IMG/VR virus record: IMGVR_UViG_3300032219_002765
Location: 1-64,000 of that record
From: a virus
Taxonomy: Duplodnaviria > Caudoviricetes
Strand: one strand, 5' to 3'
Length of the DNA: 64,000 nt
This document shows, in pieces, positions 3,026 to 46,786 of this stretch. Under the pieces are notes generated by a model that ran no database searches, was not told where the DNA came from, and saw only the letters and a program-made list of their open reading frames with translations. Position 1 is the stretch's first letter. Every line of letters begins with the position of its first letter. The position numbers were made by a program, and so were the translations under genes.

Positions 3026-3397
3026 TTAGCTCTTTTTAGAGTCTACTTTAATATTGTTTTGCGGGTTTTGTTTGTCTTTGTTGTATCGAGCGGAAATTCG
3101 TTTTACAGCGCTTACTGAGATATTTAAAATTCTTGCAACAGCAGAACAGCTGTTACCAATATTTAACAAATTTATAATTTCAGCTGTTTGCCAAGTTTTG
3201 GATTTGCGCGTATCAATTGCTTCTTTGATTTTGCGATATTCGAATGAAGTTGAACGTGTTGTCAGAATTTGGCGAACTCTTTCGTGCGAAATACCAACGA
3301 GCGCAGATATTGCTCGCAGGCTTTTTCCTTCTAAATAAAATTCGTAAATTTGCCTAAACCGATCTTGACGCTGTTCAAGGGTTAGTTCTGAAAACAT
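3026..3397 (-). CDS. helix-turn-helix DNA-binding protein (two HTH, sigma region-4-like)
   Basis: GKSLRAISALVGISHERVRQIL and NSCSAVARILNISVSAVKRI. Confidence 0.7.
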   Translation of the reverse strand: MFSELTLEQRQDRFRQIYEFYLEGKSLRAISALVGISHERVRQILTTRSTSFEYRKIKEAIDTRKSKTWQTAEIINLLNIGNSCSAVARILNISVSAVKRISARYNKDKQNPQNNIKVDSKKS

Positions 3398-42668: not shown

Positions 42669-42714
42669 GTTGATGCTTGAAAAAAGGAGGTGTTGATGCT
42701 TGAAAAAAAGAGGT
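42669..42714. repeat. 23-bp tandem duplication at the 3' end of tRNA-Leu
   Basis: gttgatgcttgaaaaaaggaggt / gttgatgcttgaaaaaaagaggt (1 mismatch). Confidence 0.85.
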
Positions 42715-42796
42715 GTCACGGGCGGGATTTGAACCCGCAAGAGCAATGCCCGACGCATTTTAAGTGCGTTTCGTATACCGATTCCGACACCGTGAC
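42714..42796 (-). tRNA. trnL: tRNA-Leu(TAA), intronless, CCA not fully encoded
   Basis: GTCACGG/CCGTGAC acceptor; ACGCA-CTTAAAA-TGCGT anticodon arm; long variable arm; GCGGG-TTCAAAT-CCCGC T-arm. Confidence 0.95.
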
Positions 42797-42797
42797 A

Positions 42798-42873
42798 TGG
42801 TGCGCGTCGTCAGGATCGAACTGACCTACCGCGAATTATGAGTTCGCTGCCTTCACCAGATGGCTAGACGCGC
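42798..42873 (-). tRNA. tRNA with CAT anticodon (elongator Met or lysidine Ile2), CCA encoded
   Basis: GCGCGTC/GACGCGC acceptor; GCGAA-CTCATAA-TTCGC; GTCAG-TTCGATC-CTGAC; ends ACCA; no initiator hallmarks. Confidence 0.93.
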
Positions 42874-45130: not shown

Positions 45131-45373
45131 TTGCGGCCAAGTTTGTTACACATAGCGCCAGGGGTTAGTTATATCGGGGTCCTATCACGTTTTTCCACAG
45201 GCAAACATTTAGTTTTATGTAGTTTTACACTTAGTGGGGCACGTTACAACTTTTTAAGTTTGCTTGACAAAGCGGCCGAGCCCATGGTATTTGCGCGAGC
45301 GGGCGCGGGCGCGGTTCCGTTACTAGGTGAGCTCGATGCGCAGTGTGCCAATCAAATCACTGACACAAATCTA

Positions 45374-45403
45374 TTGACGGGCGAACCACCCTGCGAATAC
45401 CTT
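45374..45403 (+). promoter_or_regulatory. sigma70-type early promoter
   Basis: TTGACG-18 nt-TACCTT immediately before the structured RNA. Confidence 0.55.
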
Positions 45404-45409
45404 TATGGA

Positions 45410-46160
45410 GTCGGAGGCGAGAGCCCCGGCCGAACCTAGACAACCGAACCAACCCGCGACGGCCGAACGGGCCCCGCGCCTGTCCCTGATGGTAGGGAGT
45501 ACCTCCCCGAAGTGTAGGGAATGGCAGGCATGGTGTGCCCCAACGTGAGCGGCGGGAAAGGTAAGGTCTCTAGGTTTGCGAACCTTGACAACAGAATAAG
45601 TGTAAGCAAGTAGGGAGCCGTGAGGTAACCGAAACGTACTGCGCTTGTTCTTTAATATAATTCCCATACAGTGTGGACAATGCAGCTGAACCTAAGTAGG
45701 CCATTGGATAAGCACTCTCCACTGTATGTCAGCGGGCATCTTGTCTTTAACTAAGGCAAAGTAGCGACGCTAAACGTCAGCAACTCTCGTCAGGTTGCAG
45801 CTGAATACAACCCTTGTCTGGTTGCAGTTAGTTACAGTTGCCGCAGATTCTATGTCCAGCGTACCTGTGTCTAATGCAGATACGCTGGCCACTGGACACT
45901 AGTACTTCACCACGGCGTTTCCGTGCGATGGCAGGACTAGTTATCAGCCAGTGATTCATTCTGTGCACTGTAACTAACTGTATGCCTGGCAATTTGTTTT
46001 AAGTTTCCTCAGAGAAGTTTACTCTGAGCGGTTGCAGATCTGCTGTAACTTGTCAACAGGCAGGATCAATTAAAGATCACATTGGATCATATATGATCAT
46101 GAGACTTCAGACTCTCTCCTGCTGAGTTTAACTAACTCAGCCCGAGGGATTCATTCTCTC
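45410..46160 (+). ncRNA. putative large structured non-coding RNA, class unknown
   Basis: More than 15 helices found by eye, including a perfect 14-bp long-range helix 45825-45838/45967-45980, nested multibranch junctions, a GAGA tetraloop, and G-U pairs that work only on the + strand. Confidence 0.7.
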
Positions 46161-46192
46161 ACCCTTCCACTTTGTTTCAACAGGTGTTAATC

Positions 46193-46438
46193 ATGACTGC
46201 TACACAAGTGTTACATTATTGCGCATCAAACGATCGCAACGGCAACCCTCAACGTTGCTACGTTCTAGTTGATGCTGACGGCAACAAGTTAGCTGCCTGG
46301 GATGAGGGATACGAAGGCCATCATGCTGTGCCCGATGTATGGCGGGATGCTGCATACGCTGCAGAGCGTATCAATTGCAGCATGACATGGTATCGTAAGA
46401 TGTTACGCACACTGCCTACATATCCTTTCTCACTGTAA
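46193..46438 (+). CDS. early hypothetical protein
   Basis: ORF track 46172; ATCATG start at 46193; ASNDRNGNPQRCY. Confidence 0.6.
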   Translation: MTATQVLHYCASNDRNGNPQRCYVLVDADGNKLAAWDEGYEGHHAVPDVWRDAAYAAERINCSMTWYRKMLRTLPTYPFSL

Positions 46439-46462: not shown

Positions 46463-46786
46463 ATGTCCCTCACAATCAAGACTAACAACGTGCCACGTGA
46501 AACATTCTGTGGCATGTTAGCTGACATGTTTGTCGGCGAGGCTAAGGCTAATAAACTGCGTGAGCAGTTTGATTATCTAACTGATGAGGAGTTTGAAGTA
46601 ACCGACTTCATACAGTATCGCGGTTACTTCTATTCTATGGGTGACTTTATGCGTACAGAATCTAATGCTAGTCATGACCTATCTGGCTGGGATGGTTATG
46701 CATCAGATAGTTTCTTCAGTGGGGTATGTATTAAGTTTTACGATAGTCCGTATGGTGAAGTTATAGTCGGCACATATTACTGCTGA
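46463..46786 (+). CDS. conserved early phage protein
   Basis: QFDYL...FIQYRGYFYSMGDFMR...WDGYASDSFFSG. Confidence 0.65.
   Translation: MSLTIKTNNVPRETFCGMLADMFVGEAKANKLREQFDYLTDEEFEVTDFIQYRGYFYSMGDFMRTESNASHDLSGWDGYASDSFFSGVCIKFYDSPYGEVIVGTYYC

Follow-up and report, generated by a model that had tools for sequence, protein, structure and literature searches.

A conserved structured RNA carrying two boxA copies precedes the early genes of a putative freshwater cyanophage

The 64-kb window analysed here is the opening part of an IMG/VR virus record of 79.7 kb whose completeness is judged to be 99%. Its genes include a terminase, a family A DNA polymerase and a portal-like virion protein, besides many small ones, and no phage RNA polymerase of T7 size is encoded within these 64 kb. 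The closest isolate by TerL is the Synechococcus phage S-EIV1 (79.2 kb), at 52% identity, and one of the early ORFs carries a cyanophage Pfam domain. Judging from the TerL identity and this domain, the phage is probably an uncultured freshwater phage of picocyanobacteria that is distantly related to S-EIV1. The terminase gene of S-EIV1 occupies ~2.5 kb (KJ410740.1, 54080-56620; L162, 15080-17620), and the 506-aa TerL of the window aligns to it in two pieces, which suggests a ~1 kb insertion (intein or intron) in the S-EIV1 gene.

The RNA region sits between divergent gene blocks, with leftward genes on one side and small rightward early genes on the other. An adjacent pair of tRNA genes (Leu-TAA and Met-CAT, 42712-42873) lies 2.5 kb from the RNA on the minus strand. 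A first-pass annotation of the window had placed a structured RNA of ~750 nt at 45410-46160, at the head of the early operon. The + strand early genes do lie directly behind the RNA, both in the window and in its relatives, and the structured RNA is found in this interval; the conserved block, however, is wider than 45410-46160, extending from near 45260 to the first start codon at 46193. The features of the locus are as follows.

45264-45293, + strand: promoter-like site P1 (TTGACA, 18 nt, TG-extended TATTTG), proposed from sequence, ~110 bp before P2
45294-45317, no strand assigned: GC-rich tract of mostly alternating purines and pyrimidines, between P1 and P2 and found in all relatives
45374-45403, + strand: promoter P2, TTGACG (45374-45379), an 18-nt spacer and TACCTT (45398-45403), with conserved hexamers and spacing
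45410-45430, + strand: 5'-terminal hairpin in a boxB-like position with a GNRA-type loop, from the minimum free energy (MFE) fold
45431-45578, + strand: domain A, nested long-range helices A1-A4 with a highly conserved internal-loop core (45486-45520), supported by covariation
45432-45444, + strand: boxA copy 1, identical at 12/13 positions to the picocyanobacterial rrn spacer boxA and overlapping the 5' strand of helix A1
45580-45592, + strand: boxA copy 2, identical at 13/13 positions and followed by a D4-like word up to 45600, from sequence comparison
45596-45812, + strand: domain B, variable hairpins (45596-45650, 45665-45729, 45740-45760 and others), from fold and alignment
45814-45992, + strand: domain C, two branched arms enclosed by a ~23-bp closing helix (its core pairing 45825-38 with 45967-80), supported by covariation and folding z-score
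45993-46060, + strand: domain D, hairpins 46008-46028 and 46031-46048 and a segment complementary to boxA copy 2 (46049-46057), from the fold
46064-46098, no strand assigned: GATC cluster with four sites at intervals of 11, 10 and 10 nt; three of the sites do not vary in any member of the family
46110-46162, + strand: 3' module, whose variable, covarying hairpin (46110-46152) is closed by GAGGGA and a pyrimidine strand
46193-46438, + strand: first early ORF (81 aa, no family), from sequence
46463-46786, + strand: 107-aa ORF after the first early ORF, directly following the RNA in most relatives

In the promoter P2, both hexamers and their spacing are kept among the relatives while the sequence of the spacer is free to vary. 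The promoter had been proposed before as TTGACG-18-TACCTT and is present one base to the right of the position implied then; a strict consensus promoter scan of the window did not list it. Its placement would put the start of transcription at ~45409-45411. The -35 word of P1 is kept in most relatives and a good -10 in only some; P1 may be an additional promoter. The GC-rich tract between the two is of the CG/TG type, which is Z-DNA-prone, and its length ranges from ~20 to ~90 nt across family members (e.g. L019 2772-2870 and L069 99-200).

Every helix listed in the first-pass annotation was located, within one or two bases of where it had been placed. These include the GGC-GAGA-GCC hairpin (45416-45425), the pairings of 45478-84 with 45523-29, 45572-76 with 45581-85 and 45665-72 with 45722-29, the perfect 14-bp helix (45825-38 with 45967-80) together with its inner hairpins, 46008-14 with 46022-28, and the 3' hairpin (46110-46152). 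The MFE structure of the + strand from 45409 to 46165 has 250 pairs, 27 of them G-U, and leaves 66% of the bases paired. Compared with dinucleotide shuffles, a check that had been proposed along with the helices, the + strand of the whole region folds better than the shuffles with a z-score of -5.9 (minus strand, -4.1). The corresponding values are -7.4 and -5.5 for domain C, which contains the 14-bp helix, and -3.1 and -2.2 for domain A.

Homologues were gathered from IMG/VR and JGI metagenome contigs by way of the neighbouring early proteins and of conserved DNA words. A profile search yielded 54 distinct sequences, 40 of them full length, and at least four more were recovered by a looser domain C pattern among the matches listed, which were mostly noise, bringing the total to ~58 distinct viral and metagenomic sequences. 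As extracted, the sequences measure from ~0.9 to 1.7 kb, which includes ~150-250 nt of upstream promoter region as well as flanks, and the variation in length stems from insertions of 190-490 nt at fixed points. All lie between divergent gene blocks and before the same early genes. The runs holding the sequence belong to 11 studies with labels of freshwater, lake, estuary, marine and sediment. No ORF is conserved across the family. From member to member the longest ORFs change position and strand, in several members no ORF exceeds 50 codons, and the peptide of the RNA region that recurs best is found in 9 of 40 members; the first-pass annotation had judged the overlapping ORFs to look spurious. 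A protein search with the 81-aa product of the first early ORF found no match.

The family also stands apart from described RNAs. At the gathering thresholds of Rfam 15 the only matches in the window are the two phage tRNAs, with nothing in the RNA region and nothing in twelve relatives, and a permissive scan of the RNA region (E up to 10) gave nothing better than E = 9.7. Covariance models of GOLLD, ROOL, OLE, HEARO and other large RNAs of Rfam, and of group I and group II introns, RNase P, tmRNA, 6S RNA and riboswitches (Rfam, and dedicated tmRNA and tRNA detection) had no match. This supports the impression gained at first reading, that GOLLD and ROOL, introns of groups I and II, RNase P and tmRNA have left no recognisable mark on the region. 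A DNA search of deposited phage genomes with the region gave no match. S-EIV1 has a gene-poor stretch at the equivalent place, which matches neither the family HMM nor the domain C model and has no boxA. Two words from the RNA were also sought in 185,579 bacterial and archaeal species genomes, where nothing related was found. The domain A word had 0 matches, and the matches to the GATC pattern (six in bacterial and archaeal genomes, 23 in metagenomes) were rejected as unrelated GATCA-type tandem repeats. In the literature on cyanophage boxA, antitermination and large non-coding RNA, no description of this RNA family or of cyanophage boxA leaders was found. The ~10,000 candidates in a catalogue of structured viral RNAs average 67 nt in length (PMC10690425), and fragments of the family may be among them.

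The members of the family fold independently into the same architecture with differing sequences, and the covariation among them, which had been put forward as a check, is strong in domains A and C. In the covariance-model alignment of domain C (35 distinct sequences), 86.4% of the cells at paired positions hold standard pairs, compared with 27-38% when the 3' partners are slid by 1-3 columns. Changes on both sides occur in 39 of 62 pairs (18-22 in the slid controls), the covariation score is 0.344 (slid maximum 0.108), and none of 500 column shuffles attains the observed values. Domain A was aligned by sequence only with MAFFT (33 sequences) and fitted to no structure, which makes it the more conservative of the two tests. 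Here standard pairs fill 76.8% of the cells (33-40% with slid partners), 28 of 58 pairs have changed on both sides (12-19 in the controls), and the covariation score is 0.232 (slid maximum 0.105). Where a pair is not Watson-Crick, G-U exceeds A-C on the + strand by ~2-3 to 1 (177:54, 168:64 and 192:110), counts that are somewhat biased because the structures were derived from the + strand. They agree with the first-pass argument that such an excess of G-U reflects selection at the level of RNA. Based on the covariation, the G-U bias and the orientation of the promoter, the feature is a single-stranded fold of the + strand rather than a protein gene or mere DNA repeats. These observations confirm a conserved, non-coding and densely structured + strand RNA behind a host-type promoter.

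The GATC cluster does not share this kind of support. Its sites are spaced by about one helical turn, and the spacers between the three invariant sites vary. Genome-wide, 266 GATC sites are found where 175 are expected, and none occurs in the 950 nt of the RNA region upstream of 46037. No conserved -35/-10 pair could be made out by eye inside the cluster, which could act at either the DNA or the RNA level. It invites a reading of the whole region as a DNA-level element, such as a replication origin or a protein-binding control region, in which the phased GATC sites, the repeated CTTGAC/CTTGTC words and the alternating GC tract would be functional and the folding a by-product. The three sites one helical turn apart are invariant and no covariation explains them as a helix, and the position between divergent gene blocks would suit such an element. 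However, dozens of base pairs survive double changes and the wobble pairs favour one strand, neither of which is expected of DNA binding sites, and a conserved, correctly oriented promoter lies at the 5' edge. Features of the DNA may be present alongside the RNA, yet they cannot explain it, and a pure DNA-level element seems very improbable.

The individual parts of the RNA differ in how they are conserved. The 5'-terminal hairpin varies in length and sequence and keeps its pairing in the relatives; in helices 1-2, six of eight pairs have changed on both sides. The core of domain A is almost invariant, apart from one subfamily with a different core, and both domain A and domain C contain invariant internal-loop nucleotides. 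The hairpins of domain B, by contrast, are kept with unrelated sequence, as read by eye from the alignment, and some relatives carry insertions of ~190 nt in this domain. One hairpin-loop word of domain B is conserved (45746-45758 in the window) and contains stop codons in two or three of the frames (in most relatives TAA, TAG and TGA); similar words occur at 45971-45979 and 46127-46137. Some members have insertions of 190-490 nt at fixed points in domains B and C (L022 ~2040-2230, L081 5487-5974 and L153 in domain C). These have no Rfam match and no obvious ORF, and look like expansion segments. In domain D, the predicted fold of the window pairs boxA copy 2 with 46049-46057, and this pairing can be drawn by eye in many members. 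It was discarded as a candidate helix, as it does no better than shuffled controls (mean z -0.7).

The two boxA copies make up a direct repeat of 13 nt within the RNA. Cyanobacterial rRNA operons have a boxB hairpin, boxA and D4, and the Nus-factor antitermination complex is the one defined in rrn operons of E. coli. A published primer that targets the 'antitermination box A motif' of picocyanobacteria reads as the reverse complement of a 20-mer (PMC9769826), and the first 13 bases of this 20-mer are identical to 45580-45592; PMC8461337 lists the general boxA and D4 words of cyanobacteria. The comparison was made with published words, the host being inferred. The single differing base of copy 1 covaries with its partner in helix A1 (alignment columns 57 and 244). 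With one mismatch or fewer, the boxA word has only two sites in the 64 kb, both in the RNA and on the + strand, and no further copies beyond chance were found in the window. In all 40 full-length members both copies stand at fixed positions and distances from the promoter, and a D4-like word usually comes next. Across the family loci, 50 matches to a boxA 12-mer (at most one mismatch) fall in the RNA regions, and the flanking phage DNA, 299 kb searched on both strands, has 0. Copy 1 lies on the transcribed strand in the order P2, hairpin (45410-45430) and boxA (45432), in a region with no conserved ORF.

Three other cyanophage lineages were found by way of the 107-aa early protein. In these, a promoter-like site, a hairpin and the same boxA and D4-like word precede the early genes in the absence of the large RNA (L005 3100-3165, L011 ~3110-3165 and L012 ~2720-2775). 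Given that the same hairpin-boxA leader occurs in these lineages, the strategy may be general.

Based on these observations, we somewhat favour the view that the RNA is a heavily folded early leader, which would load the host Nus machinery so that polymerase can cross the untranslated structure and the hairpins downstream of it. Host RNA polymerase would start at P2, and perhaps also at P1 ~110 bp upstream. The nascent RNA would form the terminal hairpin, after which boxA copy 1 would be exposed, with copy 2 coming after the first folded domain. By analogy with rrn operons, the lambda nut site and the T7 early leader, boxA would be bound by NusB/S10, NusA and NusG, and the polymerase would become a fast complex resistant to pauses and terminators. 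This modified complex may also aid formation of the long-range helices. The polymerase would then pass ~750 nt of untranslated structure and the terminator-like 3' module or modules to reach the early genes. The start and end of the transcript and any processing are likewise putative. The order of the parts copies that of an rRNA operon, a phage-specific fold taking the place of the rRNAs.

Several observations sit less easily with an early leader. NusB/S10 binds single-stranded RNA, although both boxA copies are base-paired in the predicted final fold. Cyanobacteria lack Rho, so what antitermination would overcome is uncertain, and we know of no biochemical demonstration of boxA function in cyanobacteria. 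The 3' module of the window has no T-run and no predicted terminator, and the host is inferred only from the 52% TerL identity to S-EIV1 and the one cyanophage Pfam domain. In addition, a plain leader needs no ~600 nt of conserved structure. As the size and deep conservation of domains A and C exceed what the loading of boxA demands, the folded body probably has a further role, in stability, processing or the binding of a partner.

The 3' module bears on whether transcription continues into the early genes. GAGGGA (46144-49), which closes the hairpin with the upstream pyrimidine strand, can alternatively pair with a pyrimidine strand downstream (46155-60). In most relatives a T-run follows this alternative hairpin, and the scan calls it terminator-like; in the window there is no T-run and the scan predicts no terminator. 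In L021 (2322-2337 plus T-run) the terminator hairpin is predicted at -9.2 kcal/mol and the competing hairpin at -19.6. As the first hairpin is ~10 kcal/mol more stable, read-through is the default prediction. The module, along with a conserved start-codon context, is repeated before a second early gene in 8 of 54 loci (e.g. L022 3510-3625, L018 4782-4874 and L093 1319-1414), and has no second copy in the window. Since it recurs before a second early gene, the module is a general early-gene element and not part of the big fold.

Two mutually exclusive hairpins, with a T-run in the relatives, could also form the switch of an attenuator. The RNA would in that case bind a ligand, a protein or a tRNA, and the pyrimidine strand at 46112-46119 would either pair with GAGGGA, allowing read-through, or leave the terminator hairpin free to form, thus gating the early genes. 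The invariant internal-loop nucleotides of domains A and C are what might be expected of a sensor. However, the same module stands before a second early gene with no large RNA ahead of it, no segment was found by which the pyrimidine strand could be sequestered, riboswitch families give no match, and ~700 nt is far above the size of any known sensor of this type. We therefore regard such an attenuator as unlikely and, like the DNA-level element, as less likely than either an early leader or a stand-alone RNA.

A stand-alone RNA is the more substantial alternative to the early leader. Domains A-D would then be the product itself, released by termination at the 3' module or by cleavage at the long helices, as rRNA is released from its precursor. 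Once free, this stable RNA or ribonucleoprotein would act in trans, e.g. as a host-factor decoy or scaffold, or as a multimer of the GOLLD or ROOL type; boxA would serve its synthesis as it does that of rRNA. The conservation and covariation of domains A and C, far above the needs of a leader, argue for such a product, and so does its modular build, which like that of other large RNAs takes up insertions (190-490 nt) at fixed points. The 5'-terminal hairpin and the near-perfect closing helix of ~23 bp look like features of stability or processing, in most relatives a terminator-like hairpin stands between the RNA and the first ORF, and GOLLD and ROOL demonstrate that phages make RNAs of this kind (PMC12286853). 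Metatranscriptome contigs from three runs cover parts of the RNA of relatives. One small run holds the RNA region only, and in another run the contig with the RNA has a depth of 18.8 while other contigs beside it have 2.4-10.3. These contigs, which show neither strand nor transcript ends and may include DNA carried over into RNA libraries, point weakly to transcription of the RNA, and the greater depth would suit a separate product. On the other side, the competing hairpin is ~10 kcal/mol more stable than the terminator hairpin, which makes read-through the default; the window itself has no terminator; and no partner gene is consistently linked. A stand-alone RNA is possible, as a minority view. 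More tentative still, and rather doubtful, is the proposal that the machinery of host rRNA synthesis (boxA and the Nus factors) makes a free-standing RNA of a new class as the first product of the phage, which would be cut or terminated off the early message and act in trans on a host component during takeover, or form an RNA-only particle like those of GOLLD and ROOL.

The known system closest to an early leader of this kind is the cyanobacterial rRNA operon, with its leader and 16S-23S spacer. The phage RNA shares the boxA word (13/13 and 12/13), the D4-like word after it and the hairpin before it. Each of its two boxA copies directly precedes a large domain that a long-range helix closes, its promoters are possibly tandem (~110 bp apart), and its product is untranslated. 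Unlike the rRNA operon, its domains are not rRNA or tRNA and have no Rfam match, protein-coding early genes follow it, and Nus binding is predicted here. The early region of T7 has the host promoters A0-A3, boxA, and RNase III sites before each early gene. The recurrence of the 3' hairpin module before early genes is reminiscent of these RNase III sites. In lambda, nut requires the N protein and an N-binding boxB, whereas no such protein was identified in the window. The leaders of both T7 and lambda are short and lack large conserved folds. In T7, a genetically defined boxA lies behind the early host promoters (PMC3709561), so that there too a lytic phage sets a host boxA behind strong early promoters of host type (PMC3709561).

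Other large phage RNAs offer a different comparison. GOLLD and ROOL are large ornate RNAs of phages and prophages that form RNA-only nanocages. Like the present family they are phage-encoded, longer than 600 nt, multi-domain and covarying, occur in lake metagenomes and are of obscure function (PMC12286853). In contrast to them, the RNA described here does not match their covariance models, heads an early operon and carries boxA. GOLLD and ROOL are often near tRNA islands, while the RNA of the window is 2.5 kb from the tRNA genes and on the other strand.

The put RNA of HK022, which the first-pass annotation had named for comparison, has ~70 nt in two stem-loops and is not known to need host factors or boxA. 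Like put, the phage RNA heads an early operon in cis and, by analogy, would make polymerase resistant to terminators; unlike put, its signal is boxA, it is ten times larger, and no resemblance is seen by eye. Of the three functions offered earlier (an ornate RNA, an antitermination leader or a protein sponge), that of a leader is the closest, with the signal being not put-like but two copies of the host rrn boxA, which the first-pass annotation had not recognised. The proposal of a new large ncRNA class stands as far as sequence and structure are concerned, in that the family is new in both; a separate RNA, as distinct from the 5' untranslated part of the early message, remains putative. The novelty thus lies in an RNA family and in a variant of a known strategy, and not in the kind of system.

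Few folded RNAs of this size and depth of conservation exist, and most are without a known function. The present family offers a clear handle, as it ties a phage RNA to a host signal of the rRNA antitermination type at the onset of infection. If the RNA is indeed an early leader, lytic cyanophages would copy the layout of the rRNA operon and push polymerase through a long untranslated fold. It would then provide a concrete way to probe the role of boxA in cyanobacteria, which lack Rho, and a defined RNA of 0.75-1.4 kb with good covariation for structural study.
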